Assembly: GCA_051294905.1 (NCBI GenBank)
Contig: CM119372.1
Location: 17,114,001 to 17,178,000, forward strand
DNA: 64,000 nucleotides
DNA from: Botryllus schlosseri
Taxonomy: Eukaryota
Direction: 5' to 3'
Part shown: positions 1 through 30,052 of the stretch, piece by piece
Position numbering within the stretch: the first letter of the stretch is position 1
How the letters are laid out: each line of letters opens with the position of its first letter
Position numbers and translations under genes: made by a program
The notes under the pieces: model-generated
Told to the model about the DNA's origin: nothing
The model's input: only the letters and a program-made list of their open reading frames with translations
The model's database searches: none

Positions 1-289
1 TATTTCTTGATAATGTATTCAACGACAAATGCATGTAAACGACGGTTTTCGGGTGTATTTCCGGGTCTTATGATGAAAGAACAATTTTAGGAAGACGACT
101 GGATACCTACTACGCAGCCGTTTGACTGAATATTTGGCAGAGAAATCGCCAGAAATGTGTCGATGATAACGCTCAGCAGACCATGTCTATCGACAATCCT
201 TGGGGTATAAATATATTTCGAAGAGTGCGAGAATGGTTTGACACCGGCGACAGCTACAAAGAATCATCATTTTCCAGAATATATGATCA

Positions 290-3240
290 CAACGAATAGT
301 AGAACACTTTTTAAAAAGATTTAGGCTCCGGACTCTACATATATCTCATTAGAATCGAATTGAAATCAGACATTTTCAAAATTTCGGTAATCCGGACACA
401 ATTATGGCCCCAGATCGACCCTTGGGACGTCGACTTGAATAATAATTTTGGTATTGATGGAATCGGCTAGACTAGTAGAATCCATTTCAAAAAGAATTAG
501 GCTTCGGACTCTACGTATATCTCATTAGAATCGAATTGAAATCGGACATATTCGAAATTTCGATAATCCGGACACAATTATGGCCCCAGATCGACCCTTG
601 GGACGTCGACTTGAATAATAATTTTGGTATTGATGGAATCGGCTAGACTAGTAGAATCCATTTCAAAAAGAATTAGGCTTCGGACTCTACATATATCTCA
701 TTAGAATCGAATTGAAATCGGAAATTTTCGAAATTTTGATAATCCGGACACAATTATGGCCCCAGATCGACCCTTGGGACGTCGACTTGAATAATAATTT
801 TGGTATTGATGGAATCGGCTAGACTAGTAGAATCCATTTCAAAAAGAATTAGGCTTCGGACTCTCCATATATCTCATTAGAATCGAATTGAAATCGGACA
901 TTTTCAAAATTTCGGTAATCCGGACACAATTATGGCCCCAGATCGACCCTTGGGACGTCGACTTGAATAATAATTTTGGTATTGATGGAATCGGCTAGAC
1001 TAGTAGAATCCATTTCAAAAAGAATTAGGCTTCGGACTCTACGTATATCTCATTAGAATCGAATTGAAATCGGACATATTAGAAACTTCGATAATCCGGA
1101 CACAATTATGGCCCCAGATCGACCCTTGGGACGTCGACTTGAATAATAATTTTGGTATTGATGGAATCGGCTAGACTAGTAGAATCCATTTCAAAAAGAA
1201 TTAGGCTTCGGACTCTACATATATCTCATTAGAATCGAATTGAAATCGGAAATTTTCGAAATTTTGATAATCCGGACACAATTATGGCCCCAGATCGACC
1301 CTTGGGACGTCGACTTGAATAATAATTTTGGTATTGATGGAATCGGCTAGACTAGTAGAATCCATTTCAAAAAGAATTAGGCTTCGGACTCTCCATATAT
1401 CTCATTAGAATCGAATTGAAATCGGACATATTAGAAATTTCGATAATCCGGACACAATTATGGCCCCAGATCGACCCTTGGGACGTCGACTTGAATAATA
1501 ATTTTGGTATTGATGGAATCGGCTAGACTAGTAGAATCCATTTCAAAAAGAATTAGGCTTCGGACTCTACATATATCTCATTAGAATCGAATTGAAATCG
1601 GACATTTTCAAAATTTCGGTAATCCGGACACAATTATGGCCCCAGATCGACCCTTGGGACGTCGACTTGAATAATAATTTTGGTATTGATGGAATTGCCT
1701 ATACGAGTAGAATCCATTTCAAAAAGAATTAGGCTTCGGACTCTCCATATATCTCATTAGAATCGAATTGAAATCGGACATATTCGAAATTTCGATAATC
1801 AAGACACAATTATGGCCCCAGATCGACCCTTGGGACGTCGACTTGAATAATAATTTTGGTATTGATGGAATCGGCTAGATTAGTAGAATCCATTTCAAAA
1901 AGAATTAGGCTTCGGACTCTCCATATATCTCATTAGAATCGAATTGAAATTGGACATATTAGAAATTTCGATAATCCGGACACAATTATGGCCCCAGTTT
2001 GACCCTTGGGACGTCGACTTGAATAATAATTTTGGTCTCGATAGAAGCGGCCAGACTAGTAGAATCCATTTAAAAAAGAATTAGGCTTCGGACTCTACAT
2101 ATATCTCATTAGAATCGAATTGAAATCGGACATTTTCGAAATTTTGATAATCCGGACACAATTATGGCCCCAGTTGGACCATTGAGACGTCGACTTGAAT
2201 AATAATTTTGGTCTCGATAGAAGCGGCCAGACTAGTAGAATCCATTTCAAAAAGAATTAGGCTTCGGACTCTACATATATCTCATTAGAATCGAATTGAA
2301 ATCGGACATTTTCGAAATTTTGATAATCCGGACACAATTATGGCCCTAGTTGGACCCTTGGGACGTCGACTTGAATTATAATTTTGGTCTCGATGGAAGC
2401 GGCCAGACTAGTAGAATCCATTTCAAAAAGAATTAGGCTTCGGACTCTACACATATCTCATCAGAATCGAATTGAAATCGGACATTTTCGAAATTTCGAT
2501 AATCCGGACACAATTATGGCCCCAGATCGACCCTTGGGACGTCGACTTGAATAATAATTTTGGTATTGATGGAATCGGCTGGACTAGTAGAATCCATTTC
2601 AAAAAGAATTAGGCTTCGGACTCTACATATATCTCATTAGAATTGAATTGAAATCGGACATTTTCGAAATTTTGATAATCCGGACACAATTATGGCCCCA
2701 GTTGGACCCTTGGGACGTCGACTTGAATAATAATTTTGGTCTCGATAGAAGCGGCCAAGCTAGTAAAATCCATTTCAAAAAGAATTAGACTTCGGACTCT
2801 ACATATATCTCATTAGAATTGAATTGAAATCGGACATTTTCGAAATTTTGATAATCCGGACACAATTATGGCCCCAGTTGGACCCTTGGGACGTCGACTT
2901 GAATAATAATTTTGGTCTCGATAGAAGCGGCCAGACTAGTAGAATCCATTTCAAAAAGAATTAGGCTTCGGACTCTACATATATCTCATTAGAATCGAAT
3001 TGAAATCGGACATTTTCGAAATTTTGATAATCCGGACACAATTAGGGCCCCAGATCGACCCTTGGGACGTCGACTTGAATAATAATTTTGTATTGATGGA
3101 ATCGGCGAGACTAGTAGAATATATTTCAAAAAGAATTAGGCTTCGGACTCTACAGATATCTCATTAGAATCGAATTGAAATTGGACATTTTCGAAATTTA
3201 GGCACCCGAATTACAAATAGGGCCCCGCTTGACCCGGGGC
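290..3240 (+). repeat. 176-bp tandem satellite array, ~16.5 units (left arm)
   Basis: The motif gacttgaataataattttgg recurs at 432, 608, 784 and onward (period 176). The unit contains ggacgtcgac, actagt and tccgga. Confidence 0.97.
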
Positions 3241-3320
3241 TTCTGTTCGTCCAGCACTCTGTTGACGAGCAACTGATATTGTACAGCTAATTTTCGCGCA
3301 TAAGTAATCTGTAGTAATGT

Positions 3321-3758
3321 TAGGGTTACAATACCTCCTTTAAAGAGGATTTGTCCTATTTTTTCACTATTTTGAAAGTGTCCCTGGAGGACCCCAAATG
3401 TCCTTTTTTTTAGATTTTGTCCTATTTATTGGCGAATTATGGTTAAATATTGGGTGAAATTCGACTGAAGTACAGTACATCGGCACCGGAGTAACGTTCT
3501 GGAGGACATTCCGGGAGCTGAGCTGGAAAGTCGACATTTTTGTCTATTTTAGTCAATCAACGAAGAATTCAACAAAAGTGTGAATTTCTGGAGCCAAGTC
3601 GGAAAATGACCTTTTTTAAAGTCAACCAACCACAAAGTCAACCAACCACAAAGTCGGGAAAAATTTATCATTTTTCCCCGATTTTACTCCGGTTATTGTA
3701 AGTCTGAAAATTTTGGAGATCTGTCCTCTATTCAGATTTCCGAAATATGGTAACCCTG
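3321..3758. mobile_element. hAT (Blackjack-like) MITE
   Basis: Termini tagggttaca...tggtaaccctg; TSD agtaatgt/attaatgt (7/8). A related right-end remnant ends at ~51563. Confidence 0.7.
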
Positions 3759-4752
3759 ATTAATGTATTAGATTTAGTTGAATGTGTGTTGTGATTGGCG
3801 CTTATCAACACTTCGGTCAAATGCACCCTCACGGTAATTTTATAAGGTTCGTGTCTTTTCGGTTTTTTCCTCCTTCGCCGTTCTTTTTCTGGTCTCTGCT
3901 GGCGGCTTGGCTTTCTTGAGTTCGTCTCTCTCTTCATCTGGGCTTGTGAAGGCGCTGAGGAGCCCAGATAGACGCATAGAAACACTGCAGACCCGAGACT
4001 ACAAACAGCAATCATTGGTGTCGGGACTGTAATGCTTAGCACACTGCGCCACTCGCTTCCCCTGTATTGTGTTGTATTGTGATAGATATTTGTATTAATG
4101 AAATTTGTGGTTCCGTGAAGGTCTCCAAATCGGCGTGTTCCGTGGGTTCTGCGGCTTGGTAAGGGTTAAGAACCACTGAGCTGACAGCTTCACGCTTTCA
4201 CCATTTAGGCCTACTTTTAATTCAGACAATACATCTTATGATCGGTTCAAGGTCTGTTGTCAGACAAAATCCATCAGCGGTGTGTGGATGGCACGACGAC
4301 GTAACTATGACATTTAAAATCATCAGATTATTAGGAATATTGCCACTGTTGTTAAAACTTGAAGGTTTCAGCACAAGTTTAACTCATTCCTAATTCAAGA
4401 ATGATAATTTCTCTCAAATGGCTTCGACCCCCTTCAGATGATTTGACGCCTGCAAAGGGGGTGCACCCCCAGTTTGAGAATCACTGTTATTGAAGAAGAA
4501 CTATTGACAGCAATGCTTGGGGCAACGCGGGGGTCGTAGCTGAAGCAGAGAATTATGTACATTTTTTGCCCTTAGGGAGTCGGTTTCAGACTTCAGAGTC
4601 GAAATCACAATTTCACTCACATGAGAGACGGTAGCCGGAGCGAGTCGTCAGTCAGAGTCGCAATGTTGAGTGCAGTCAGGAGTGGAGGGCGCATCTAAAT
4701 TGATGCGAGATCTCCAGCCCGCGCGGTAGCTACCGGTTATTGGAAAGGGATC

Positions 4753-5452
4753 CAGTGTTGGGATCAAGTCACCACCTTCGAGTCACGAGTCATTTCGAGT
4801 CATTGCACATTTCGACTCGAGTCGGGTCAAGTCAATTTATTTTCAAAAGTGACTCGAGTCAAGTCAAGTCAATCGATTTTTGGAAGTGACTCGAGCCAAG
4901 TCGAGTCAAGTCACAATTCAAGTCAAGTTGCCTTTTCGAAATATGGGCATGATTACGTCATTGCATTTTGCGAGCTGTCTGAAATACAGATTGAGTGGTC
5001 ATTGATTCCGAACCGATGAACAAAAATAGAGTTAAATGTACATGCAAGAAGGCGCTGTATCGCTCACATATACGTAGAACGATTAAACCACGTAAGTAAT
5101 TGCACAGCCTCAGTTTATACTTACCAGCTAAAATAGAAAATACAGAATAGAGAAACGAATTGATAAGATATGCAATACATTATCCATTTACAAATTGATA
5201 TGATACAATTCGAGCCTGCGCCAATGGTTTAGGACTATTTAGACTATATATTCGAATTTAATCTCCTTAAACCGTTTGGTTATGTAAGAGCAGAGAACAG
5301 AACTGCTAATTTTGCTACTAAATTACTTTACTACTAGTTTACGACAACGTAAGCTGTAAGCTTCGATCACTTCGATTGCAGTCACTTTATTTGTGAGAAA
5401 ACAGTGTAGGCCCAGTCAAACGAAAAAGGTGACTCGAGTCATCCCAGCACTG
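4753..5452. mobile_element. hAT MITE family A (cagtgttgggat TIR, gactcgagtc subterminal repeats), deleted copy in opposite orientation to the other two
   Basis: TIRs cagtgttgggat...atcccagcactg. The interior is the reverse complement of the copies at 28457 and 48061. TSD not clearly preserved. Confidence 0.8.
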
Positions 5453-6065
5453 AGAGATATATTGGTTGAGGGCCCTTTTACAACAGCGCGGCACAGGAAG
5501 GATGATGCATAATGTAATGTTACGCGATTTATGGATCTATATTTTATACCTATACGCCTCTAATCAGGCGTTGTTTTAAATTGAAAAAAATGAAAATATG
5601 AGGTGTCTCAAAACACTTTGTTTAAAACGTGTATAAAATGATTTTTTTCAAAGGCTGGATGTCATAATTGTGTAAATACTTGAGAAAAAGATGCAGTATG
5701 AGCCGTCGGACCACTTACTCTAGCTAGATATAGTCGAGCAGTTTAATCGGCACCCGGTTCAGAATCACTGTGACGCAGTCGATAGCCCAAGGGTCGGCAA
5801 CCTACGGCCCGCGGGCCGGATCCGGCCCGCCAAGCGAAATGTCCAGCCCGCGACGAAATAATTAGTTTCCAAAAGAATACGGCCCGCCGTTTCGTAATGA
5901 GTTCCAATCTGCAGTGCAGCACTGCTTGGAAAGAATGCGGCATTGCCCCGATATAAAGTATCCTACGTCGTATTAGTCTATTGTTACGCCGTAAAACTGG
6001 TGCGAAGGCGGTCGACTAGTAGCCTATCTCGTACTAAAAGTAGGAGATGGAGAATGTCTGTAGAG

Positions 6066-7197
6066 CAGTGGTTCCCAACCTTTTTCCACCCACGTACCAC
6101 TTCGAGGTTTTATGCAGTGCTCGCGTACCACCTACATAATTTAACATAATAACTCCGTAGGCGGTCAAAAATGTTTTCACCATTTATGACGTCATACTCA
6201 CGTATTTGAGCTATGTGAGGTGTAATAACTAGGGCGATTTTTTACCTAAAAATCAGAGGATTTTGACCTAAAGAAAACTTGATTTTGATGTTTTGGTTTT
6301 GGTGTTTTCGCACATAATGGTAAAATGTTGCAACTTTTATTCATTTCCGGTTGGGACTGTCTGTCCTTACGAAAAGGCGTTTTTGACCTAAAAACTGACA
6401 AATTCTGACATGAAAAAACTTTATTTTAACGATATCTGGCCCAGTAGTGACACCACGTATTACGGTAGAGTTCATTAAAATTTGTTGTAGTACAACGAAA
6501 TATACTTTCTTACATTCTCGGGTAGAAAAGTGTCTGTCCTTACTAAGTAGCTTGCCAAGAATGGAGAAATACCGTATAACAGCGGTAGTTGTTGGCTGAC
6601 AACACTGAAGCTGGGCGTACACTGCTGGTGACACATCATGTTGCTTCATACTGACAATGTTGTCATGCATCGCAATTTTTCATCATGCGCTTCTTGATAA
6701 AATAACCATGCAATGACAAGCAGTCTTGCTTCAGTTAGGACATCGCGGTACGTTGAGCATAACACCATATCTATTGTCAACCTATTTGTTTCATTTGACA
6801 GTTTATGATCCACGATGAGCAGACAATGGGCCGCCTACAACGGTAGGCATATAAAGTGGGCTACAAGCTGTAAAATATCAAAATCTGCGATACAAACGAA
6901 ATGGAGGGGTCCAAAAAGTTTTGGTTTTGTAAACAATTCTGACAATTTTTTGACTTAACGCTTAATTTTGTAAAGAAAAATCGCCCTAATAATAACAAAT
7001 TCTATGAAACTAGGCATTATCAGCCCGGGTTGATGAGATACATGGAATTGTTTTTTCACTAGTCAAAAAACTTCAAAAAATTCAAAATTAACCCAACTGA
7101 ACTAATAACTTCGAAAAAAGCAGAATCTACTCGCGTACCACCTGGAAGACCTTCGCGTACCACTAGTGGTACGCGTACCACAGGTTGGGAACCACTG
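6066..7197. mobile_element. hAT-Charlie (MER5-like) non-autonomous element
   Basis: TIRs cagtggttcccaacct...aggttgggaaccactg; perfect 8-bp TSD ctgtagag. Confidence 0.9.
6230..6988 (-). mobile_element. Nested hAT element with C-terminal dimerisation-domain remnant
   Basis: TIRs tagggcgattttt...aaaaatcgcccta; TSD gtaataac/ataataac. Minus-strand ORF 6341-6670 (CQPTTTAVIRYFSILGKLLSKDRHFS) resembles the hAT 'TS..VERxFS' motif. Confidence 0.8.
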
Positions 7198-8049
7198 CTG
7201 TAGAGTAGACTAGCTAGACCAGTGCTTATCAAGCGGGTGTATCGCGCAACCGAAAGTATACCATACTTTTTTATTGGTTTGCCACTCAGATAGGGTGCGA
7301 CAATAAAGGTGCCGTTCCTCTGCCCAGACGCAATGACAAAATCTCAAACTTTCCCTGTTTCATTAGATAGCCTAACTAGCCGCCGTAGGTTAGTCATCTG
7401 TAGTTTAATTCACCAGAAGACATTTTACGCCAAGACAACAAACCTGAATAATGTTTTGGACACAATGGTGAAAGCTGATTTTGTCTCACATACTGAATCA
7501 CCGACAGTTAGCCTACCTCAGATATTACTAGAAGCAGAGCATCAACAGGGCGATGTGTTGTGTATTGCCATGTTCGCGTATTACCCCTTATCAGCACAGG
7601 GATTTAGGGTAACTTAATCGGCACACACGTTAATAAATTGTCAACCTGGCATTTTCTAGTGTTTCTCAATGCAAAGACGCTAGTCTCATAGTGAATTTGT
7701 TATTTTAAGGGATTTTATATTGATAAAACCTTAAGGCACGATCATTGATACTAATTTCAAGGACTGTTTTAGCTTGAGCAAGTCAAAAATCTACGAAAAA
7801 TGTCAAAATTTATAATGTTTTCTTCCACTTACGGATGATGATTCCGGAACATGTAATTCACGCACCTATACGGGGCTCGTTCACTTTCGGCCCAAAATCA
7901 GTACATCCTTACGGAGAAAAAGGGTTTTTGGTCCGAAAGTGAACCAGCCCCGTCCTGGTATGGGTTCGTCATATTCCGATTTTAGAATGAGGCTGCGTGA
8001 TTCGCGGAATACCACTTTTTAAATGTTAATCACCTTAATAGCTCTCAGA

Positions 8050-11000
8050 GAAATGGATTCTACTATAGTCTAGCCGATTCCATCAATACCAAAATTATTA
8101 TTCAAGTCGACGTCCCAAGGGTCGATCTGGGGCCGTAATTGTGTCCGGATTATCAAAATTTCGAAAATGTCCGATTTCAATTCGATTCTAATGAGATATA
8201 TGGAGAGTCCGAAGCCTAATTCTTTTTGAAATGGATTCTACTAGTCTAGCCGATTCCATCAATACCAAAATTATTATTCAAGTCGACGTCCCAAGGGTCG
8301 ATCTGGGGCCATAATTGTGTCCGGATTATCGAAATTTCGAATATGTCCAATTTCAATTCGATTCTAATGAGATATACGTAGAGTCCGAAGCCTAATTCTT
8401 TTTGAAATGGATTCTACTAGTCTAGCCGATTCCATCAATACGAAAATTATTATTCAAGTCGACGTCCCAAGGGTCGATCTGGGGCCATAATTGTGTCCGG
8501 ATTATCAAAATTTCGAAAATGTCCGATTTCAATTCGATTCTGATGAGATATATGGAGAGTCCGAAGCCTAATTCTTTTTGAAATGGATTCTACTAGTCTA
8601 GCCGATTCCATCAATACCAAAATTATTATTCAAGTCGACGTCCCAAGGGTCGATCTGAGGCCATAATTGTGTCTTGATTATCGAAATTTCGAATATGTCC
8701 GATTTCAATTCGATTCTAATGAGATATATGGAGAGTCCGAAGTCTAATTCTTTTTGAAATGGATTCTACTCGTATAGGCGATTCCATCAATACCAAAATT
8801 ATTATTCAAGTCGACGTCCCAAGGGTCGATCTGGGGCCATAATTGTGTCCGGATTACCGAAATTTTGAAAATGTCCGATTTCAATTCGATTCTAATGAGA
8901 TATATGTAGAGTCCGAAGCCTAATTCTTTTTGAAATGGATTCTACTAGTCTAGCCGATTCCATCAATACCAAAATTATTATTCAAGTTGACGTCCCAAGG
9001 GTCGATCTGGGGCCATAATTGTGTCCGGATTATCGAAATTTCGAAAATTTCCGATTTCAATTCGATTCTAATGAGATATATGTAGAGTCCGAAGCCTAAT
9101 TCTTTTTGAAATGGATTCTACTAGTCTAGCCGATTCCATCAATACCAAAATTATTATTCAAGTCGACGTCCCAAGGGTCGATCTGGGGCCATAATTGTGT
9201 CCGGATTACCGAAATTTTGAAAATGTCCGATTTCAATTCGATTCTAATGAGATATATGGAGAGTCCGAAGTCTAATTCTTTTTGAAATGGATTCTACTCG
9301 TATAGGCAATTCCATCAATACCAAAATTATTATTCAAGTCGACGTCCCAAGGGTCGATCTGGGGCCATAATTGTGTCCGGATTATCAAAATTTCGAAAAT
9401 GTCCGATTTCAATTCGATTCTAATGAGATATATGGAGAGTCCGAAGCCTAATTCTTTTTGAAATGGATTCTACTAGTCTAGCCGATTCCATCAATACCAA
9501 AATTATTATTCAAGTCGACGTCCCAAGGGTCGATCTGGGGCCATAATTGTGTCCGGATTATCGAAATTTCGAATATGTCCAATTTCAATTCGATTCTAAT
9601 GAGATATACGTAGAGTCCGAAGCCTAATTCTTTTTGAAATGGATTCTACTAGTCTAGCCGATTCCATCAATACGAAAATTATTATTCAAGTCGACGTCCC
9701 AAGGGTCGATCTGGGGCCATAATTGTGTCCGGATTATCAAAATTTCGAAAATGTCCGATTTCAATTCGATTCTAATGAGATATATGGAGAGTCCGAAGCC
9801 TAATTCTTTTTGAAATGGATTCTACTAGTCTAGCCGATTCCATCAATACCAAAATTATTATTCAAGTCGACGTCCCAAGGGTCGATCTGAGGCCATAATT
9901 GTGTCTTGATTATCGAAATTTCGAATATGTCCGATTTCAATTCGATTCTAATGAGATATATGGAGAGTCCGAAGTCTAATTCTTTTTGAAATGGATTCTA
10001 CTCGTATAGGCGATTCCATCAATACCAAAATTATTATTCAAGTCGACGTCCCAAGGGTCGATCTGGGGCCATAATTGTGTCCGGATTACCGAAATTTTGA
10101 AAATGTCCGATTTCAATTCGATTCTAATGAGATATATGTAGAGTCCGAAGCCTAATTCTTTTTGAAATGGATTCTACTAGTCTAGCCGATTCCATCAATA
10201 CCAAAATTATTATTCAAGTTGACGTCCCAAGGGTCGATCTGGGGCCATAATTGTGTCCGGATTATCGAAATTTCGAATATGTCCGATTTCAATTCGATTC
10301 TAATGAGATATACGGAGAGTCCGAAGCCTAATTCTTTTTGAAATGGATTCTACTAGTCTAGCCGATTCCATCAATACCAAAATTATTATTCAAGTCGACG
10401 TCCCAAGGGTCGATCTGGGGCCATAATTGTGTCCGGATTACCGAAATTTTGAAAATGTCCGATTTCAATTCGATTCTAATGAGATATATGTAGAGTCCGA
10501 AGCCTAATTCTTTTTGAAATGGATTCTACTAGTCTAGCCGATTCCATCAATACCAAAATTATTATTCAAGTTGACGTCCCAAGGGTCGATCTGGGGCCAT
10601 AATTGTGTCCGGATTATCGAAATTTCGAAAATTTCCGATTTCAATTCGATTCTAATGAGATATATGTAGAGTCCGAAGCCTAATTCTTTTTGAAATGGAT
10701 TCTACTAGTCTAGCCGATTCCATCAATACCAAAATTATTATTCAAGTCGACGTCCCAAGGGTCGATCTGGGGCCATAATTGTGTCCGGATTACCGAAATT
10801 TTGAAAATGTCCGATTTCAATTCGATTCTAATGAGATATATGGAGAGTCCGAAGTCTAATTCTTTTTGAAATGGATTCTACTCGTATAGGCAATTCCATC
10901 AATACCAAAATTATTATTCAAGTCGACGTCCCAAGGGTCGATCTGGGGCCATAATTGTGTCCGGATTATCAAAATTTCGAAAATGTCCGATTTCAATTCG

Positions 11001-12470
11001 ATTCTAATGAGATATATGGAGAGTCCGAAGCCTAATTCTTTTTGAAATGGATTCTACTAGTCTAGCCGATTCCATCAATACCAAAATTATTATTCAAGTC
11101 GACGTCCCAAGGGTCGATCTGGGGCCATAATTGTGTCCGGATTATCGAAATTTCGAATATGTCCAATTTCAATTCGATTCTAATGAGATATACGTAGAGT
11201 CCGAAGCCTAATTCTTTTTGAAATGGATTCTACTAGTCTAGCCGATTCCATCAATACGAAAATTATTATTCAAGTCGACGTCCCAAGGGTCGATCTGGGG
11301 CCATAATTGTGTCCGGATTATCAAAATTTCGAAAATGTCCGATTTCAATTCGATTCTAATGAGATATATGGAGAGTCCGAAGCCTAATTCTTTTTGAAAT
11401 GGATTCTACTAGTCTAGCCGATTCCATCAATACCAAAATTATTATTCAAGTCGACGTCCCAAGGGTCGATCTGAGGCCATAATTGTGTCTTGATTATCGA
11501 AATTTCGAATATGTCCGATTTCAATTCGATTCTAATGAGATATATGGAGAGTCCGAAGTCTAATTCTTTTTGAAATGGATTCTACTCGTATAGGCGATTC
11601 CATCAATACCAAAATTATTATTCAAGTCGACGTCCCAAGGGTCGATCTGGGGCCATAATTGTGTCCGGATTACCGAAATTTTGAAAATGTCCGATTTCAA
11701 TTCGATTCTAATGAGATATATGTAGAGTCCGAAGCCTAATTCTTTTTGAAATGGATTCTACTAGTCTAGCCGATTCCATCAATACCAAAATTATTATTCA
11801 AGTTGACGTCCCAAGGGTCGATCTGGGGCCATAATTGTGTCCGGATTATCGAAATTTCGAATATGTCCGATTTCAATTCGATTCTAATGAGATATACGGA
11901 GAGTCCGAAGCCTAATTCTTTTTGAAATGGATTCTACTAGTCTAGCCGATTCCATCAATACCAAAATTATTATTCAAGTCGACGTCCCAAGGGTCGATCT
12001 GGGGCCATAATTGTGTCCGGATTATCAAAATTTCGAAAATTTCCGATTTCAATTCGATTCTAATGAGATATATGTAGAGTCCGAAGCTTAATTCTTTTTG
12101 AAATGGATTCTACTAGTCTAGCCGATTCCATCAATACCAAAATTATTATTCAAGTCGACGTCCCAAGGGTCGATCTGGGGCCATAATTGTGTCCGGATTA
12201 TCGAAATTTCGAATATGTCCGATTTCAATTCGATTCTAATGAGATATACGTAGAGTCCGAAGCCTAATTCTTTTTGAAATGGATTCTACTAGTCTAGCCG
12301 ATTCCATCAATACCAAAATTATTATTCAAGTCGACGTCCCAAGGGTCGATCTGGGGCCATAATTGTGTCCGGATTACCGAAATTTTGAAAATGTCCGATT
12401 TCAATTCGATTCTAATGAGATATATGTAGAGTCCGGAGCCTAAATCTTTAAAAAAAGTGTTCTACTATTC
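8050..12470 (-). repeat. 176-bp tandem satellite array, ~25 units, reverse complement of the left array (right arm)
   Basis: ccaaaattattattcaagtcgacgtcccaagggtcgatctggggcc repeats with period 176 and is the reverse complement of the left-array unit. Confidence 0.97.
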
Positions 12471-13539
12471 GTTGTGATCATATATTCTGGAAAATGATGA
12501 TTCTTTGTAGCTGCCGCCGGTGTCAAACCATTCTCGCACTCTTCGAAATATATTTATACCCCAAGGATTGTCGATAGACATGGTCTGCTGAGCGTTATCA
12601 TCGACACATTTCTGGCGATTTCGCTGCAAAATATTCAGTCAAACGGCTGCGTAGCAGGTATCCATTCGTCTTCTTAAAATTGTTCTTTCGTCATAATACC
12701 CGGAAATACACCCGAAAACCGTCGTTTACATGCATTTGTCGTTGAATACATCACCAAGAAATAGTCTGGCAAGAGGTTCCCGAATATGCCGATGTAATTT
12801 CCAAAGCACAAAACGTAATGACACCCGAGTATATTTCCATGATTCACCCGTTCACCGATTTCGGTCAAAAATTCTAATAGAATCACAGTGGTTATTCTTA
12901 CCATTGAACGGGACCGTGTGAATCTGGTATCAAGATGCGTAAGCGTTAGTTGTAATTTTTCGAAAATTGGTTACTATTATATGAATTTACTGGCCTGACT
13001 GGGGTGTACCAGTGTGGTGTGTATATCTTAGTTCTCTTCTCCCTGCTTCTCTTGCTTTGATAAACTATTATTGAATAAATGTCACGTTAATGCATGTCTA
13101 TTTAGGCTGTTACACGTAACTGAAGCAACCAATTCGAGGTCCATTAGATTCGGGCCATCAATTTGTATAGGTTGTAGCAAGTATTACTGTTACTGGTGCC
13201 GTAAATTTTATACTCTAATGGAACTTGGAAGTATAGTCATCATTTCAATGTACCCCAAGACTGTGATACAATGTAAAAAAAACATAAGGTGTTCTAACGA
13301 CTTGAGGTAGTCTTTACAATCAGACATGAATCCGAAGAGTGACCTAATACTAATAGTAACTATTTTTTCTTTAAAAGATGTTAATAAGGAGTGGAATTAG
13401 TCCAAAAATAACCACTTAAGTGCATAAGTGTGAGTAACCAGCATAACCAATATATTTATACCATCCCCTATGAAATCTCGGTTCATTTTTTGAAATAAAT
13501 CCTGCGTGATAAGAGCTTTTCTGCATAGAGTAATTAAGT

Positions 13540-14616
13540 GATTACCAGAGAACCCGGCCCTTGGAGAACCCGGCCCTACCAACTCGGCCCTCGGAGAACC
13601 CGGCCCTCGGGAAATTTTGTATATCAAGCACGCGTGGTCTACTTGTTGTGGTATTCATGGTGTTTTTCGACTACTCTGGACCTCGGTGAATGCGGCCATC
13701 GAATAATTTTGAAATAAAAATGCATTAAATGTGATATGATTCTCAGGTAGGGAACAATCACGTGCCGTGGTAGATCTCCCAGTGCGAGAGCCTGATATCG
13801 AAGAATCTACCACGCATGCTACCGGTTCACCATGATTGGTTGCCAGGGAACTCGGCACTTGGAGTTTGATACCGCAGCTTTGCAGCATGTGGCCTAATAT
13901 CCCACCCCGGCAACCCTAATATCCCACCTCCGGCAACCCTAATATCCCACCCCCGGCAACCCTAATATCCCACCCCCGGCAACCCTAATATCCCACCCCG
14001 GCAACCCTAATATCCCACCTCGGCAACCCTAATATCCCACCTCCGGCAACCCTAATATCCCACCCCCGGCAACCCTAATATCCCACCCCCGGCAACCCTA
14101 ATATCCCACCCCGGCAACCCTAATATCCCACCCCGGCAACCCTATAATATCCCACCTCCGGTAACCCTAATGTCCCACTCCCCGGACCCTAATGTCTCCT
14201 TTCCCAACTACCCTAACACCCCACCTCAACCTACAGTTGCAATAACGAGCAGACCACGTGTGGTTGATATGTGAGCAATAACAATCATCTGAACAATTCA
14301 CACACAATGTACAATGCGATAAGACCCAATACGATGTCATGAACCGATACGAGTATGTCGAACATCGCACGTCCGCCCTTCGCCAAGTCAATTCAACACT
14401 GAGCCGACCACGCAAGCGTGATCACGTGATCTCTGCGTGATCTACGCATGCCCTGACCTCCTTACAAGATTGACAAATCAGTTGATAATAACATTATTAG
14501 TTTAATAATTCATATTAATACTTGTGAATACACTTAATTTCAAAATTTCCCGAGGAATTCACCGAGGGCCGGGTTCCCCAAGGGCCGGGTTGGTAGGGCC
14601 GGGTTCTCCGGCAACC
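13540..14616. mobile_element. MITE with modular TIRs (ggagaacccggccct repeats) and internal minisatellite
   Basis: ~80-bp inverted ends built of gagaacccggccct units; direct repeat aattaagt on both sides (13532-13539 and 14617-14624). Confidence 0.8.
13893..14200 (+). repeat. 22-23 bp minisatellite (ggcaaccctaatatcccacccc), ~12-13 copies
   Basis: Directly visible tandem units, degenerating after ~14160. Confidence 0.95.
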
Positions 14617-14683
14617 AATTAAGTAATTGAACAGAAAGTCCTGCATGACGTTGCCAACTTGCCACCAATTTCACTCTGGTATA

Positions 14684-15136
14684 CCATAGTGTCCTATTGG
14701 TGTGGACGCAAGCAAATATCACCGCTCAGAGAAATTGGTCTACGTGTCTGTATGGAATCGGTGTCCTGTGCTCACACTATGTTATATATTTTTTCATTAA
14801 ATTGCTTTAACACGGAGAATCAACGCTTCTCACCAGATATATCAGGCAAAACGTACCGAGATTCCAGTAGGGACTACGTCACACTTAACATCAACTCTGT
14901 TACAACATTCGAGGCCGATTTTGTGGGGCTCCCCGTTCCAGGACCATGAGAAGAATAAAATTTATATTTTCGCAATCAGTACCCCGGTAGCTTTCGATTG
15001 ATACCCGTTCCATCAAATTTCACGTTCGGCAAGCCCGACAAGAATTGCTGTTAAATGACCTGAAAAGTGTGGCGTAGACCAATTTCACTGAGCCGTGAGA
15101 TTTGCTTGTGTCCACACCGTATATAGAACAACATGC
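14684..15136. mobile_element. MITE with ~60-bp TIRs (possibly PIF/Harbinger-like)
   Basis: ggtgtggacgcaagcaaatatcaccgctcagagaaattggtctacg (14699) is inverted against cgtagaccaatttcactgagccgtgagatttgcttgtgtccacacc (ends 15118). A related copy at ~49717-51635 is interrupted by another MITE. Superfamily is inferred from the ccatag start only. Confidence 0.7.
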
Positions 15137-15336
15137 TTATACTCTCAAAAAGTTGATGCACTTCGTTACTGACCACCTCTGCTTATGATAAACTGCCACA
15201 AAAATTTCCGGAATGATGATTTTATAGTGCTGGGATTGTTAACAATCTCAATAATGTGAGATCAATGGAATAAATCTGTACACAGGAGGTAGCGATATCT
15301 AGGCTCAGTCTGTGGTCGATTCGAAGATCGTCAAAA

Positions 15337-16770
15337 ATGACTTCTGTCGTTAACAACACGGAGGAATGGATGTTTGTGGATCTTTTCCACGCCTTGCTGC
15401 AAGCCCCTTTGTACCACTTGTCTATCGAGGCCCTCCTCGTTCTGTGGATAATACGATTATTGTTCTTCAAAAAGAGCTACAAGCCACAGGACAGGCTGCC
15501 TTTGACGGCGTCGGAAAAGCAAGAATTGATTGACGAATGGCAGCCAGAGCCACTGGTTCCAGAACAGACCACACCGTACACTTACAGGAGAATTACCGGC
15601 CGTCCTGACAAAGAAATTACTGTCGACGGATTCAAGTGTTTCAACCTTGCTTCTTTGAACTTCCTGGGGTTACTTGGAAATAAGAACATCGAAGAAAAAT
15701 CCACGACCGCTATTAGGAAATATGGAGTTGGATCATGCGGGCCTCGCGGGTTTTACGGCACCGTCGACGTGCATTTGGAGTTGGAAGATCGTCTGGCGAA
15801 ATACATGAAAGCCGAAGAGGCAATTATATACGCTTACGGTTTTGCCACCATAGCGAGCGCGATTCCTGCGTACTCCAAACGCGGTGACATTATCTACGCG
15901 GACGAGGCGGTGTGCTTTGCAATTCAAAAGGGCCTGCAAGCGTCGCGTAGTCGCATCGTATATTTCAAGCACAACAACATGGACGATTTGGAGGCGAAAT
16001 TAAAAGCGCAGGAGGCCGCCGATAAGAAAGATCCCAAACGCGCTTCAGTCACTAGGAAGTTCATCGTTGTCGAAGGAATTTACGCCAACACTGGCACGAT
16101 TTGTCCTTTGCCCAAACTCGTTGAATTGAAATACCGATATAAGGTGAGAATCTTTATCGAGGAATCGTTTTCGTTTGGTGTACTCGGCGAGCACGGCCGT
16201 GGCGTCACCGAACACTTTGATGTTCCGATCGAAAAGGTCGATCTCGTTTCGGCGAGTCTTGAGTATGCTCTCGCGTCTATCGGCGGGTTTTGTGCCGGCA
16301 GCTCTTATGTAGTAGATCACCAACGTCTGTCCGGTCAGGGCTACGTATTTTCTGCGTCGTTACCGCCGGTGCTAGCGTGCGCCGCAATCGAAGCCGTGAA
16401 CATTATGGAGCAAGATCCCAGTTGTTTCGCCACGCTGAGAAGTAACGGCAGTTTCATGCAGCAGGCGTTGTCTTCCATACCGAGTTTGGAAGTGGAAGGG
16501 TATCCGGAATCTCCCGTTTTTCACCTGCGAGCAAACTCGTTCGAAGATCCGACCGAAGCCAAAAAGTTTCTGGAAAAGATTTCGGATCAGTGCTTGGCGA
16601 AAGGTGTCGCGCTCACGCTCACCGCCAAGTTAGAGCAGGAAGAAAGGAATAAAGAAATAAAACCGAGTATCCGCGTCAGCGTGTCGAGCGTTATGACCGA
16701 GGCCGAGTTGAAGTCTGCCGCGGAAACTATCAGATCTGTAGTGCAAGACGTGGAGAACAGCGGTTGGTAG
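15337..16770 (+). CDS. SPTLC1: Serine palmitoyltransferase long-chain base subunit 1, single-exon ORF, 477 aa
   Basis: N-terminal transmembrane segment [21 protein letters not shown]; motifs [39 protein letters not shown] and [17 protein letters not shown]. It lacks the PLP lysine ([14 protein letters not shown]), as expected for SPTLC1/LCB1. Confidence 0.97.
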
Positions 16771-20776: not shown

Positions 20777-23700
20777 ATGGACTCGGCGGCAGAGCCAGTC
20801 GAAACGGCTGTGGAAAGTCACATGCTGGAAGAAGACAATTTCGTGGAAAATCTGTCCGATGCCGGGAAATTCAGTTACTTGGCTCTTTGCAGCAGCGCTC
20901 TCTCTCTACTCTTTGGAACTACAGATGACAAGTAAGTCGCAAGGTGACGGTATGTAGGGTAGGCCGATTTGAACATGGGTTTACCAGGGGTCAAATAACC
21001 GAACTTGGACCTGCTGCTATAATTTACAGTTTACGACTGCTTATTAACCCAGGAGTCCACCAATGCTTTATGGCGCTGTCTCCTAGTAGAATATTTGCTT
21101 TCAATTCTCATGGTCCAATTATATTATGGAGGCATATACGCCCTACGGTAATTTTGTGGTAAATGTAGTATGTGTCACCAAAATGGCACAAACCTTGGAA
21201 CTGTAAATGACCCAGATTGCCGTGTCAGAATGGGTAGATCACCTCGTTGACGCATTTTAACACTGTGCTGAAATTGGTCGATAACACTAGTATCGATTTT
21301 CAGATTCAAAAGTGATTCTCGTGCCTTTGCCGGTAAAATTTTATATTTTCGGAAAAATTTAGAGTGCATAACCGCTATGTAGTAACAGAGTTCAATTACA
21401 GGTACAAAATCATTGGCTTGAACTTCACTTCACTATTATATAGACACAATGCTCATACTCGTAGTAGTTTTATAATCCTTGACGTCTCAGCGACCCACGA
21501 CTTGCAGCTAGTCTGGCTTAACCTACGTTAGCGTGTCTTTAGGTGGTAGGACGGGTAAGCAACATCTGATGCACGTCATGTTTCAGGGTCTACCGTCACA
21601 AGACCGTTTATTCATTGGTGAAACACGTCAATTTGGAGAGTAACTGTTATCCCACGATGGTGGCGATTTCCGATGGAATGAGCGTAGCGGATAGTGACGT
21701 CTTCGTAAAGACATTACGGGAGGAGGGAACGATCAAAGTACACTTTGTCCCGTTTTAACTTGGTCAGTTTGCAAATACACTTTCCGTTTAGGATACACCG
21801 GAAGCTGTCGCTTACGACCTTGTCGCCTGGGCCCTGCTGAGCGATCACGGGGACGGCTCCGGACATAATCTGACCGGACGTTACGACAGCAGGACACGCA
21901 TCTTGTTGAGACACGTCACCTGGCAGCTTCGAATCGTTTTGGAAGAGCTGGAGAAAGCCGAGCATGAGATGGTGGAGATGTTGGAGTCTCGAACGGAGAA
22001 GGAGAAAATGTAGGTTTGTGTGTTTGAATTTAGGCTACTTTTCCGGTGTCGTGAATCCGCAAAGCATGCAGAAGTGCATTGTCGTAACCAATGCAAAATA
22101 GTTACTGATGCAACAAATAGATAGGGCTGGGCACAATGATTCGAATACTCAAATCTGGATCAAGTATTAATCTTATTGAGTCAAGTCGAGTAGTGAAAGA
22201 CTATTCTTTCGAGTATTGAAAGTATAGGCTACTCACCACTAAAAGTAAATTTATCAACGAAAATTATAGCTCCGATACTATTTTCCACTGTTGAAGCCTT
22301 GAAACCTTAATTGGCCGTACTGCAGCCTACAATATAGGGTATAAAGTACTAGTACAAAGCTACGGATGTTACTGGAAATGCCACATTTCCGAAGTCATGG
22401 TCATCCCACAACATCGTCACAAAGTGCAATGAAATCGGTATGGTCGAAAAAATACTGAGTATGGTTAATGTGATGGATAACAGGTATTTTATTTGAACTT
22501 TGACATATTACATTCTGCCATGACGTCATAATGAGTGATACTCGAATACTCGAAGCATAATACGTGATTCAGAATCGAATCACTCAGGTACTCAAATTTG
22601 CCCAGCCCTACAAATAGGTACAGTTTTCGAAAATAAGTTAAGCTACTCGATACAGGTGCTATTGCACCCAATCGTTATTACATTTATTCATAAAGAAGCT
22701 ACAAAACTACTTTTATACTTCACAAAATTCAAACCGATAGAAATAGGCTAAATAGTTGAGCAACGTGGAAGTAGTGCAAAGGACAATCACTGAAAAAACT
22801 GGGAGTTCTTGTACTGTTACTGACCGCCTGTTGTATTCAACAGATAAGGTTTGGTAAATGACAGACTGCACAAACTGTATACTATTTCTGAACTCACCAT
22901 GCCAAGCAGTTGTTTGATTTACAGTATTGTGCTTTCCCAGTTCGCATCGGTCATTACTCAATTTGCAAACAGCCCATGGGAGATCTGCACGACACGAAAC
23001 CTTTAAAGATCCGAATGTCTAATTTTGTTTCTGTTCCAGGGAACATAAGGAAGAGAGAGATCGCCAACAAAGGAAGAGTAAAATCAAGCGGTACACTATC
23101 ATTGGATTGGCGGCGATCGGGGGTGGCGCTATTATCGGACTGACAGGCGGCTTGGCGGCGCCATTGGTAGCGTCTGGAGCAGGTGATTACCATGTTACTT
23201 GAATAGGCTCACAGTATTTAACTTGAGTGCCGCGCGTGGGTTCGATCCCTGCTTGGCGCTCATGCATTACTGGGATAGCATGGAGGGGTGGTGCATGACT
23301 TAGAAAGCCGTAAAGGCTATATCTGCACTTCCTTGTCCAGCGGCGTATGCACATCATGCACTCATGGTATGCATATGCACAGATCGTGTGTATGTGTATC
23401 ATAGTTGGTGTATATTCCTCAAAAACATCAGGGACGAAAATAAACTACGTCCTTTCCTTCCTTTACTTTTGTGTAAAATGCATGCGATCAGACCAGTCGA
23501 GTCCACTCAGAGTGATATTAATCACGCCATGTCACACACCGGTAAGTTTACTTTGTTATTATTTTAATGTATCGTGATTTTCTTTTCGGTTGCATAAATC
23601 AATAAAATTTCTCTTTTCTCTATCTGTCAGGTGCAATATTCGGGGCGTCGTCCGCCGCTGCGCTCGGGTCAGCCGCTGGCATTGCTGTGATCACGTCGCT

Positions 23701-26700
23701 GTTCGGGGCGGCCGGCGCCGGACTGACGGGCTACAAGATGAAAAGGCGCGTCGGGGGTATCGACCAGTTCGTCTTTCGACCTCTGACTCCGGGGAAAGAG
23801 TTGAGCATTTCGATCGCCATTTCCGGCTGGCTGTCCAGCTCCCAAGGAGAATGTATGTGGTTTTCTGTACGGAACGTCGCTTATCCTTGGCTCGCTGTAC
23901 AGTACACGTACAGTCACAGTCTACCGCTAACATTCATTTTGAAGGGGCCCTGCGATGTGGTCTCAAATTAAAGATGAAAGTGTGGAAAAATTTTTGGCGG
24001 CAGCCATTTTCTTCAGAAAACCAACGTATTCAAAATGCAGTTGAAATATTTTCATGAGTGTTACTTTTCACTCTAGCTTATCTCTTTCGTATCACAGTCA
24101 CAGTAACGTGTCATCGCAGCTTAAGGTAAATGGGAATTTTCACATTTCTCTCTTTAATTTGAGACAACATCATATTCTACGCGTACTTGTCCCATTAAGG
24201 TTTTTTTCTCCCTCAGTTCAAATGTTGCTTTCTTAGCCAAAAGACGTTTTCTATTAGGACAATATCAACCTGCTTCATGTTCTAGCTAGTTGTTCTGGCC
24301 AATGTTGAATGTTATGCACAGGTACATAACCAGGGGAGCAGTTTTAGAAGCCTATCTCCTATTTAATGGGTGTATGCAAATTATTTCGCTCAACTCCCGC
24401 ATTTGACATATTGGTTTTCCTCGCTTACCTTCATTTTACTTCTACATTAATTGTGATCAATATCCTGTGAATTGACTTGAAAGAGATGTGTAGTGCTGCA
24501 TAACAGTTGCAGATTCTCGATATACAGAGGTGATCTTACCGCTGACGCCCTGAACGTAATATTCAACATTTCGAAGGTAATATCGCTCGCAGACCGTGGT
24601 TATAATATAAATTATATTCTAGTTGGGGTACTAGATACCGCGCAGATAACGATAACGTCATAACAGAGTTGCCCAGTTTCTAGACCGAGCTGACCAGTTT
24701 CTAGACCGAGCTGACCAGCGCTCATTATGATATTCCCATCCGCAGGTGACTTTGCGATTCCGTGGCAGTCGCTGAAACAAAGTCAGGAACAGTATTATCT
24801 AGTCTGGGAGTCGGACCATCTTCTCAGACTCGGCGGGGCGTTGGAGTACATCTTGGACAGTCTGGTTTCTGTCGCCGCCAGCGAAGCGCTCAAGTACACT
24901 GTGCTTTCGGGTGGGCAACTTTGATAAGTGTTGTCGGAAGACAAATTTTAATTGAAAAAAATCTGTTTCTAGGTCTTGTCGCCGCCGTGGCGTGGCCTGC
25001 GTCATTGATTGGGGCCGCTAGTATTATAGACAATCCGTGGAGCGTGTGCTTACAGAGAGCAAGTCAGGTACTCGATGATAACTGTACTGTAATTCTTTAT
25101 TGCTATGTATGATGGTTTTATTGCAGTGGTTCCCCACTTTTTTAGACACGCCCCCCTTTATGATAGTGAAAAATTTCGCGCCCCCCTTATCGTCATATCA
25201 CAGAATCCAACCGGGATGCTAGCAACCTAAACAGATTGTTTGATGGCATGGAAGGTTATGTCTGTTGATGAGAGAATTAAAAAATATGAAATTCGGTCGA
25301 TATATAGAGAAACACACCGCTTCTTCGTGCCCACCTTCAGATGCTTTCACGCCCCCCAGGTTTGGAACCACTGTTTTATTGGATCTTGATTGGTTTGTCT
25401 ATATGAAGCGTGCGAGATCTCGTATGTAGACAGGGGTGGTCGTCGTCGGTGGCTAGAATCGAATACAATGCAATTCGCACACCGTATCTTCGGGCTGTTC
25501 TTGTGCACTGTCTTACAACATAAATCTTTATAATTACCCATTCGTCATACTAAATCATGCCCGCACATTCAGTCGTGAATAGCGCTCCGAAATTTGATTG
25601 TGATTTGCTTTGCGAGTGGTCATAACATTATTGACATGCGTTACTGAAGTACTGAATTGAATATAATGTATCTAATTCTTCATTTTATATGCTGTAACTA
25701 GCATATGTTTGTTGTTCATGTGTATAGAGAAGCTTACACGAGCAAGATTATCTCATTCTTGTTGATTAATCTGATTAACCTATTGTAATTTAAAACGTCA
25801 GTTTTCAAAAGATCCCTCCTCTCCCCCCTGGTTGTTTTGTTTCATGAGCCTGAACATCGTACTCATTTTTTGCAGTATACAAGTAGGTTCTGCCTGTCTG
25901 CACTACTTACGGTACTTGAGTGGTTGTGCTTTCGACTGTTACCAATTCTACTTAACAATATTTTAGGCAAAACTACTGTAGCCTCCCTGTATTTGTAATG
26001 TCATTAGTCTTTTGGCGTTGGTCACAAATATATCTCGTGCTGTTTTGAAACTAGCCACCCACGATTAACTTCGAATAGTATGCGACCCCTTGGCCACTGC
26101 CATTGCTACTTGTACCTGTCAACACATCAATTTTACTTCTACTTGTTGAGTAAGAACACCGAGTACTTTGCCCACCTCTGCATACACACGAGTACTGTTA
26201 TATACGTTTTGGACGCACAATGCTTTTATCCACGGTAGTGTCGCGAGTCGTCTTCATTGTCCTCTGTTCTGTGCTGGTATGGTGTTATCGTGGGTATGTA
26301 ACGATAAAGTGTGCGTAATTATCCTGTAAATAATTTTTAATATATAATTCAGTGCACACCATTTCCCTTCACTTCATTCAACTCCGAGCCAATTCTCGAC
26401 TACCGGCCGAATCGCTTGGTTACTTGACCTCTGCCTGTTAGTTACCTTATCCCTTTCCTCAAGGTTGGTAGAGAGCTAGCGGATGTGTTAGTGTCTCGGC
26501 AGCACGGACACCGGCCGGTCACACTGGTAGGATATAGTCTCGGCGCCAAAGTCATTTTTCACTGCCTAGAAGAAATGGTCAAAAGAAAAAGTGAGCTGTT
26601 CTCCATACTCTAATCAGCGACGTGCTCGTGACGGAATCGGTTTTTGCAGACAGCTCGGGCATCGTGGAAGACGTGGTTCTTCTCGGCGCGCCGGTCACCG

Positions 26701-29700: not shown

Positions 29701-30052
29701 AAAGTCGAATGACGACGACACAAATTTGCTGTCAACGTCGACCTCTGAACCTGTCGACGTAGCCAAAACAGCTCCTGCTGAAACTGTGGGGCCGTCAAAT
29801 TCAGAAGCGGCAGTCCTCGGGGATTCTCTTATATGTAACAGCGACCAGCATGCCTCAGAATCACCTTCCAATATTGCAATTAGCGTGAGTGAATTAATTG
29901 ATACGGACAGTGCGGAAGCTGCTTGCGTAAAGCCGGTGGAAGCGGACACTTTGCATGTGAACTGCATCGACGAGAGTCTGTCAGACGTTGGTGGCGATAA
30001 CCAATGCAAACCAGCGCCCGTAAAAGTAGTCGAGGAAGGTGGCACTCGGTAA
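20777..30052 (+). CDS. TMCO4: Transmembrane and coiled-coil domain protein 4 (DUF726 alpha/beta-hydrolase-like), 11 exons, ~667 aa
   Basis: Exons 20777-20931, 21587-21737, 21792-22009, 23040-23182, 23631-23852, 24746-24910, 24973-25067, 26464-26590, 26650-26767, 27396-27575 and 29623-30052. All introns are GT-AG, phases are consistent, and the total is 2004 nt. Motifs RYDSRTRILL, IGLAAIGGGAIIGLTGGLAAPLV, GYKMKRRVG, IDNPWSVC, RPVTLVGYSLGA, SDWLL and GHLDY. Confidence 0.93.
22122..22610. mobile_element. hAT MITE family C (tagggctgggca TIR) in TMCO4 intron 3
   Basis: TIRs tagggctgggca...tgcccagcccta; TSD caaataga/caaatagg. Homologous to the copies at 31633 and 42078, in opposite orientation. 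Confidence 0.9.
23200..23400 (+). mobile_element. SINE remnant in TMCO4 intron 4
   Basis: B-box gggttcgatcc plus ccctgcttggcgctc core shared with the ~18620 copy. Boundaries approximate. Confidence 0.45.
25124..25373. mobile_element. hAT-Charlie MITE (~250 bp) in TMCO4 intron 7
   Basis: TIRs cagtggttcc...ggaaccactg; perfect TSD ttttattg. Homologous interior (atggaaggtta..gatgagaga) at ~19570-19840 and ~41100-41360. Confidence 0.88.
28457..29339. mobile_element. hAT MITE family A in TMCO4 intron 10
   Basis: TIRs cagtgttgggat...atcccaagacta; perfect TSD accaccgc; gacttgactcgagtc arrays at both ends. Confidence 0.9.

Follow-up and report, generated by a model that had tools for sequence, protein, structure and literature searches.

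Two arrays of a 176-bp monomer face each other near the start of the window, the whole 64,000-nucleotide stretch of DNA analysed here, from the stolidobranch ascidian Botryllus schlosseri. Comparison of their letters establishes both as descendants of one ancestral arm with at least six ordered monomers, because six monomers are mirrored and, on a tree, those of the left array are interspersed with those of the right. We read the locus as one old, dead foldback element of the Tetris/Rehavkus type with an inner deletion and arm-to-arm exchange, a reading to which we give about an even chance.

Mirrored arms and their arrays

The two arms are composed of the following features.

1–296, plus strand: left unique leader, clipped by the window edge; mirrors 12468–12763 with 10 mismatches in 296
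297–3245, plus strand: left 176-bp array, with a degenerate first unit, 16 full monomers (329–3143) and a degenerate last unit (3144–3245)
3221–3241, plus strand: GC hairpin by fold prediction, within the degenerate last unit of the left array
8050–12449, minus strand: right 176-bp array, with 24 full monomers and one cut unit (25.0 copies by TRF)
12450–12763, minus strand: right unique leader, the portion with its mirror inside the window
12764–13016, minus strand: remainder of the right leader, with no partner inside the window and a putative tip at 13016

Positions 1–343 align with the reverse complement of 12421–12763 at 96.5% identity (12 mismatches), in agreement with the first-pass annotation, which had called the outer segments ~96% identical inverted repeats. 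The common degenerate first unit that it described is present in both arms. The arrays lie on opposite strands, with 17 plus-strand and 25 minus-strand monomer matches (0 expected). L1–L3 differ from R1–R3 by 1, 1 and 0 bases, the best among 286 trimer offsets, so the mirrored order claimed earlier for three monomer variants holds, and it now extends to six; R1–R6 are matched in order by L1, 2, 3, 7, 8 and 9 with 9 differences, and 3 of 720 permutations are equally good. TRF counts 16.5 copies on the left (297–3199), and with the 25.0 on the right this reproduces the unequal numbers first proposed (~16.5 versus ~25). Given the six mirrored monomers and the interleaved tree, the earlier view of paired arms, not two independent satellites, stands.

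The array pair is mirrored at the outer side alone. Homology between the arms can be demonstrated only as far as 12763, because the window begins within the left arm, and the 500-bp inner flanks score 28, which is equaled in 96 of 300 shuffles. The element end at 13016 is putative, placed by just two features, a CAC-starting motif (9 such 8-mers on both window strands) and a CpG drop (p = 0.001; equally extreme in 2 of 92 control window pairs). Within the monomer the tip motif occurs at chance level (70 of 100 shuffles). An Rfam search of 1–15500 gave 0 matches at E ≤ 0.1, monomer and leader pattern scans gave 0 and 0 in genome contigs and 0 and 0 in viral contigs, and no match was found for the leader as decayed coding DNA. 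The sole monomer/leader pattern match, metagenome contig L001, is a coding contig with only a short word in common and was set aside as chance.

Judged from their units, the arrays each expanded by their own block duplications after the common origin. The right array contains internal 9-mer and 7-mer block duplications, with R13–R20 identical to R4–R11, and L10–L12, L14 and L15 form a subfamily confined to the left array (clade support 100/99). Right-array variants comprise 16 common with L1–L9, 4 private ones and 0 from the L10–L15 subfamily. That only 4 are private counts against an old pair, and fits a young copy too.

Arm mismatches over 1–856 number 14 in all, 9 in the 141 positions of 1–141 and 5 in the remaining 715, and 0 of 1000 permutations were as clustered. 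Divergence is 6.4% in the distal leader and 0.7% in the arrays and proximal leader, a gradient consistent with an old pair in which one tract was converted recently.

Inner junctions and the middle segment

The DNA between the arrays contains the following features, none assigned to a strand.

3246–8053: middle segment, single-copy DNA with several MITEs, which make up ~2891 of 4808 bp (about 60%)
3321–3758: hAT-like MITE with an 8-bp TSD (one mismatch); its end bins are multi-copy
4753–5452: high-copy repeat, with further window copies at ~80–84% identity and a depth ~1000x that of single-copy DNA
5791–7225: nested hAT-like MITEs; 6066–7197 has a perfect 8-bp TSD and encloses 6230–6988; the outer right end is approximate
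7736–8053: TTAA-flanked multi-copy element, with high depth at 7792–8050 in X1 and X13

X1, X5 and X13 are public sequencing samples from three studies, in which contig depth serves as a rough guide to copy number. The middle has been filled with later MITEs. We take 3321–3758 to be hAT-like from its TSD length and end motif, and the element at 7736–8053 probably lost its terminal bases at the right-array junction. The middle is single-copy and polymorphic; the nearest alleles differ at 2 of 375 and 10 of 697 positions, and alleles diverged by 7–9% also occur. No Pfam family reached the cut-off in 59 stop-to-stop and 30 read-through frames searched for a transposase, PHD or protease remnant, and two candidate peptides yielded none of these either. 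A possible host exon or transposase tail at 3843–4061 (minus strand) was rejected, with 0 homologues among 84 candidates or among 1.84 billion representatives. Aligned with each other, the halves of the middle outscore 50 of 50 shuffles; the aligned stretch includes a MITE end and does not reflect arm symmetry.

On the left, the array grades via its degenerate unit into sequence of single-copy depth in X1, X5 and X13, equal to the baseline at 3200 and 3295; in X5 the depth at the left inner end is 22.7, equal to baseline, and a second copy was not seen. This junction is found in three studies (3 of 3 samples holding the locus), and one allele of it shows 16 differences in 189 bp; the locus has thus existed in the species for a long time. 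The idea of a separate TIR for each arm, pairing the left inner end with the right tip, was dropped when 56 and 243 of 300 shuffles scored as high.

On the right, the array breaks in mid-unit at a 4-bp microhomology (8050–8053), and the junction unit carries an extra TA at 8064. None of the depth at 8064 in X5 and X13 contains this unit. In X1 the 2-base gap is missing from 882 of the 25,695 depth at that position, about the single-copy level, and this fraction is perhaps the window's own junction unit, which we take as a hint only. No bridging contig was found among those listed. Two X13 contigs continue beyond 8053 into non-array letters found nowhere in the window, and a clean insertion is therefore excluded.

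The unbridged right junction could point to an assembly artefact, either a chimera formed by fold-back or a single array whose haplotype copy was mis-joined, and since R4–R11 are identical to R13–R20 the right-array length could be inflated. We consider an artefact extremely improbable, however, as 14 of 856 sites separate the arms, whose block structures and private variants are also distinct, which is not what a read-level palindrome would look like; three studies confirm the left junction, and the X1 fraction at 8064 hints the same way.

The junctions also bear on the main alternative, which is a real contender but one we would not bet on, namely that the left arm came first and the right arm was copied from it later in inverted orientation (leader and monomers to about L9), the middle being host DNA. 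Local template switching during replication, or else the left end transposing aberrantly, would have produced the copy, with a join at the 4-bp microhomology and loss of adjacent DNA, and the foldback shape would have originated at the present locus. It would account for right-array variants that are nearly a subset of L1–L9, a microhomology junction at which a monomer and another repeat are both truncated, a left junction present in every sample with the locus, against a right junction unit missing from X5 and X13, a single-copy and polymorphic middle, and a proximal arm divergence no larger than the nearest middle allele differences. On the other hand, the 6.4% divergence of the distal leader would require haplotype mosaicism, for which middle alleles 7–9% apart do exist; the X13 letters beyond 8053 rule out a clean insertion; unless a transposase took part, only chance would have put the edge of the copy at a transposon-like tip; and X5 and X13 may have a right arm at a position further out. 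A narrower form, a foldback at birth and still polymorphic, in which an old single arm with a locus-restricted 176-bp array was copied inverted 4.8 kb away, is unlikely. Maize composite insertions made by alternative transposition, a possible parallel, are said to contain inverted element-end copies joined by microhomology.

Copy number and known systems

Monomer depth relative to single copy is 12–58x in X5, the cleanest run, 4–226x in X13 and 44–514x in X1. No other family member sharing the middle or the left inner end was found in these three samples. Against ~1000x for the neighbouring MITE, a monomer depth of 12–58x leaves dispersal unsupported, and with it the first-pass idea of a satellite dispersed by a transposon: monomer depth is low, and all 3 of the 3 samples that contain the locus have the middle and the left inner end at single-copy level. 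A further sample, X18 (raw Hi-C, organism D), is taken as another species because it contains MITE ends only and no monomer, and it does not bear on the locus. These four are drawn from 23 listed runs, and six runs with small shares play no part in the analysis.

One close likeness is to Tetris of Drosophila virilis, whose arms have a unique outer domain of up to 866 bp followed by ~220-bp inner repeats, in arrays that expand by unequal exchange (Dias et al. 2014, PMC4079207). As in that account, the locus has long inverted arms, unique on the outside and tandemly repeated within, unequal repeat copy numbers and a non-coding middle (by Pfam, in the 59 + 30 frames), with an outer domain of ~580 bp and a repeat of 176 bp. 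Tetris is also described there as having an arm inner domain, 8–10-bp TSDs and many dispersed copies, whereas here the arms share no inner domain (96 of 300 shuffles score as high), of which the right copy may be deleted, and the middle and left inner end are single-copy.

Tribolium Rehavkus elements, related to MULEs, carry subterminal satellites with up to 50 monomers in their termini (bioRxiv 10.1101/2024.12.02.626372); the Rehavkus-1_TC monomer is 164 bp, TfSat06 termini sometimes exceed 11 kb and elements are ~10 kb (bioRxiv 10.1101/2024.12.02.626372, PMC10218199, PMC6446971). The present locus likewise has subterminal tandem monomers in both inverted termini. It differs from the described elements, which have an ORF with a DDE transposase and PHD finger and a 9-bp TSD, in that neither such an ORF nor a recognisable remnant of it was found; the likeness is one of architecture.

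In Cg_HINE, non-autonomous Helentrons of Crassostrea gigas, 160–180-bp monomers dominate and the longest array has 29.3 units (PMC7492417). Monomer length class, array size (176 bp, 16–25 copies) and a hairpin following the final unit are shared with our locus, and they raise the prospect of two independent facing insertions of a dispersed Helentron/HINE-like array element, the left complete and closed by its GC hairpin and the right truncated. This reading is very improbable and already largely refuted. The array-closing hairpin and its flank are single-copy, and the hairpin is therefore not a family's shared 3′ module, which rejects it as the HINE 3′ module, described as conserved (PMC7492417); here the arrays also form an inverted pair. 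The subTIR-IR pair and leader microsatellite of Cg_HINE (same source) are both absent, the hairpin from 12840–13100 and the microsatellite from the whole leader. With monomer depth low, chance is unlikely to have put two insertions within 5 kb of each other.

Proposed history and meaning of the locus

The proposal of a foldback-type element therefore survives in part: the Tetris layout and the common arm ancestry support it, and the lack of a shared inner domain and the microhomology break at the right inner junction do not. In the preferred reading of an old foldback, a non-autonomous DNA transposon, Tetris/Rehavkus-like (Mutator-related) in action and ~13.3 kb long provided that the left arm mirrors the right, would have inserted both arms in one event. 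Each arm would consist of a ~580-bp unique terminal domain and then 176-bp repeats inward. The middle would have lost its coding capacity, and a haplotype-limited deletion would have removed the inner portion of the right arm. Unequal exchange or gene conversion may have held the arrays and proximal leader near-identical while the distal leader drifted. The element would now be dead, its satellite growing in place rather than spreading.

Satellite-bearing foldback architecture is already published, in Tetris and Tribolium Rehavkus. Our search, with most subscription papers outside it, found no publication combining foldback, ascidian, tandem repeats and terminal inverted repeats. Simmen and Bird (2000) reportedly described a Ciona intestinalis foldback element with subrepeat arms, a possible parallel.

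If the preferred reading is true, the locus adds an unsurprising ascidian case to the foldback arms already known to bear satellites. Its use lies in illustrating array turnover, with six ancestral monomers, independent block duplications and a conversion-like identity gradient. If the right arm is instead a younger copy, the origin of long foldback arms would be on view at this locus; genotyping could test this, since the two junctions do not appear to be equally frequent across the samples. A foldback at birth would mean two matching ends around host DNA, with the satellite first and the foldback shape later, the reverse of the Tetris model, and it could mobilise should a Rehavkus-like transposase in the genome recognise the tips.

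Descent of both arrays from one arm

The paired-arm feature is laid out as follows, with coordinates as window positions.

1-296, + strand, leader of the left arm, cut by the window edge
297-3245, + strand, left array of 176-bp monomers
3246-8053, middle between the arrays
8050-12449, − strand, right array of 176-bp monomers
12450-13016, − strand, leader of the right arm, with a putative end at 13016

The window has no N bases. TRF assigns the 176-bp period to 297-3199 with 16.5 copies and to 8050-12449 with 25.0 copies, reproducing the unequal copy numbers (about 16.5 and 25) of the first-pass annotation. In the whole window, the monomer motif matches 17 times on the + strand and 25 times on the − strand, never outside the arrays. 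The outer segments, previously described as inverted repeats of about 96% identity, differ at 12 sites when 1-343 is compared with the reverse complement of 12421-12763 (96.5%), and the same degenerate first unit is indeed present on both arms. The inverted mirror is traceable within the window as far as 12763, where its partner reaches the window edge.

When monomers are numbered from the outer end inward (L for left, R for right), L1-3 differ from R1-3 by 1, 1, and 0 bases, the best among 286 trimer offsets. The mirror is longer than the three variants first noticed and extends to six monomers, as L1, 2, 3, 7, 8, and 9 correspond in the same order to R1-6 with 9 differences in total (3 of 720 permutations do equally well). 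On the monomer tree, left and right interleave, with 10 label changes versus a shuffled mean of 12. Because the order is mirrored and the monomers interleave, the two arrays are descendants of one arm, and the earlier view of them as related arms rather than independent satellites stands. That the pair is an assembly artefact is improbable, since the arms differ in a structured fashion. Incidentally, each monomer contains an imperfect internal inverted repeat (440-483 in one monomer; score 40, with 0 of 300 shuffles as high).

The arrays have turned over since the arms split. L4-6 are similar to L1-3 (2, 2, and 0 differences), R4-11 are identical to R13-20 by block duplication, and a 7-mer block also recurs in the right array. 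A clade of five inner left monomers has no member on the right. With L16 (175 bp) omitted, the two arrays have 16 monomer variants in common; a further 23 occur in the left array alone and 4 in the right array alone. Had the right arm arisen from the left as a more recent copy in inverted orientation, its variants would be accounted for as a subset of the left ones; this main alternative is possible, if somewhat doubtful. Arm mismatches are uneven, with 9 in 1-141 versus 5 in 142-856 (0 of 1000 permutations equally clustered). This reflects one of two histories: the pair is old and exchange has recently taken place close to the arrays, or the copy is young and its distal part mosaic. A mosaic distal leader is what the younger-copy reading requires.

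At 13016, CpG drops (p = 0.001; 2 of 92 control pairs as extreme) and a CAC-starting motif is found, such 8-mers numbering 9 over the window's two strands. From the drop and the motif, which we assume to resemble transposon ends, a putative arm end at 13016 is plausible.

The middle segment and its junctions

Contigs from 4 of 23 listed public sequencing runs (X1, X5, X13, and X18) were compared with 3144-8100. X1, X5, and X13 covered 30 of 30 bins; X18, covering 11 of 30 with MITE ends only, was set aside. Contigs attest presence, not absence, and the junction and depth results are among the best-supported rows listed, beyond which lie 208 further rows of variants, another 2206 loose ends, and 92,336 pieces.

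Mirror symmetry of the two inner flanks was not found. The left array tapers via a degenerate unit bearing a GC hairpin, and the right array is broken mid-unit at 8050, with 2 extra bases at 8064. Because two X5 contigs (depth 15.8 and 6.9) span the left junction, one with 2 differences and the other with 16, and depth at 3295 equals the baseline in X1, X5, and X13, this junction is real, single-copy, and old enough for diverged alleles. No second element copy sharing it at 90% identity or more was found in these three runs.

At the right junction (8050-8053), the 2-base insertion that the window has at 8064 is missing from all depth in X5 (278.6) and X13 (219.3). In X1, 882 of 25,695 depth lacks the gap, which hints at the presence of the window's junction in that run. 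Two X13 contigs run beyond 8053 into non-array letters nowhere present in the window; they may represent alleles, or else further copies of the adjoining repeat. Because of these contigs and four bases common to both sides, the junction reads as a deletion-type join rather than a transposition end. The unequal spread of the left and right junctions among runs would also be accounted for by a younger right arm.

The middle is single-copy, its non-repeat part having an X5 depth of 19-28 (bins 3808-4637). MITEs make up about 60% of it, one of them at roughly 1000x single-copy depth. Pfam searches covered 59 stop-to-stop frames in the middle and 30 read-through frames drawn from both the middle and the leader; no family reached its cut-off, and three weak ones fell below it. 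Searches for relatives of a K/E-rich frame (3843-4061) and of the leader frame found none, and Rfam gave no matches in 1-15500. At 3792-4781, which contains the minus-strand K/E-rich frame, X13 depth is 2-7x that at 3200-3500; the excess could be transcript or pooled haplotypes. A 107-aa + strand frame at 7294-7614 has no Pfam match and by its motif resembles a decayed hAT/SPIN-type transposase piece. At a TTAA site (7735), an X5 contig alignment ends exactly and an X13 contig crosses, a pattern that suggests insertion polymorphism of the 7736-8053 element.

Other features of the window

13531-14625, small element whose inverted arms consist of 16/30-bp subrepeats (54 nt at 91%) and flank a 23-bp minisatellite (13893-14193); a miniature version of the same modular-arm design
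14699-15118, MITE with 46-bp inverted ends immediately upstream of the SPTLC1 ORF, also present as partial copies around 50959-51149 and 56019-56112
15340-16767, intronless ORF, serine palmitoyltransferase 1 (SPTLC1); best named relative Styela clava (74%), with Ciona, Phallusia, and Clavelina relatives at 60-62%, which presumably places the host among the stolidobranch ascidians
23578-30052, + strand, short frames, presumably exons of a TMCO4-type gene
34644-34960, degenerate palindrome
35030-35961, near-perfect tandem duplication of 495 bp
49733-50948 versus 59864-61068, 1.2-kb repeat pair (75%)
61563-63365, long intronless ORF, a 600-aa frame resembling glycosyltransferase MGAT5

Monomer copy number and origin of the pair

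Relative to single copy, monomer depth is 12-58x in X5 and 44-514x in X1; in X13, which has an uneven baseline of 12 or 50, it is 4-226x. Summed contig depth is not copy number, and the compared stretch holds about 50 bp of monomer at either end. In X5, the cleanest run, monomer depth is on the order of this locus by itself (about 41 units) and far under that of the MITE. Therefore, dispersal of the 176-bp satellite, attributed to a transposon by the first-pass annotation, is not supported.

Comparable systems have been described. In Tetris, the outer domain measures at most 866 bp and the repeats 220 bp; the element also has an inner domain, a middle that is non-coding, and TSDs of 8-10 bp, and it has seeded satellite arrays (PMC4079207). 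Tribolium Rehavkus termini hold up to 50 monomers, and TfSat06 termini exceed 11 kb (bioRxiv 10.1101/2024.12.02.626372; PMC10218199); the defining features of Rehavkus are one ORF, a PHD finger, and a TSD of 9 bp (PMC6446971). HINEs are described in PMC7492417, with PMC9659126 as an additional source. Independent HINE-type insertions are improbable here, as neither a 5′ subTIR hairpin (12840-13100) nor a leader microsatellite was found, and the hairpin that closes the left array is single-copy in X1, X5, and X13, unlike a conserved 3′ module.

The best reading, held at about even confidence, takes the pair for a single old foldback element of Tetris/Rehavkus build, now dead. Both arms would have been inserted jointly as one element, possibly of Mutator affinity; unequal exchange would have enlarged the arrays, an inner deletion would have occurred on the right side, and conversion may have acted between the arms. 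The locus would work like a Tetris-type foldback and is a candidate member, although no inner domain shared by the two arms, as in Tetris, was found here. The paired-arm feature itself is real and of a kind already known.
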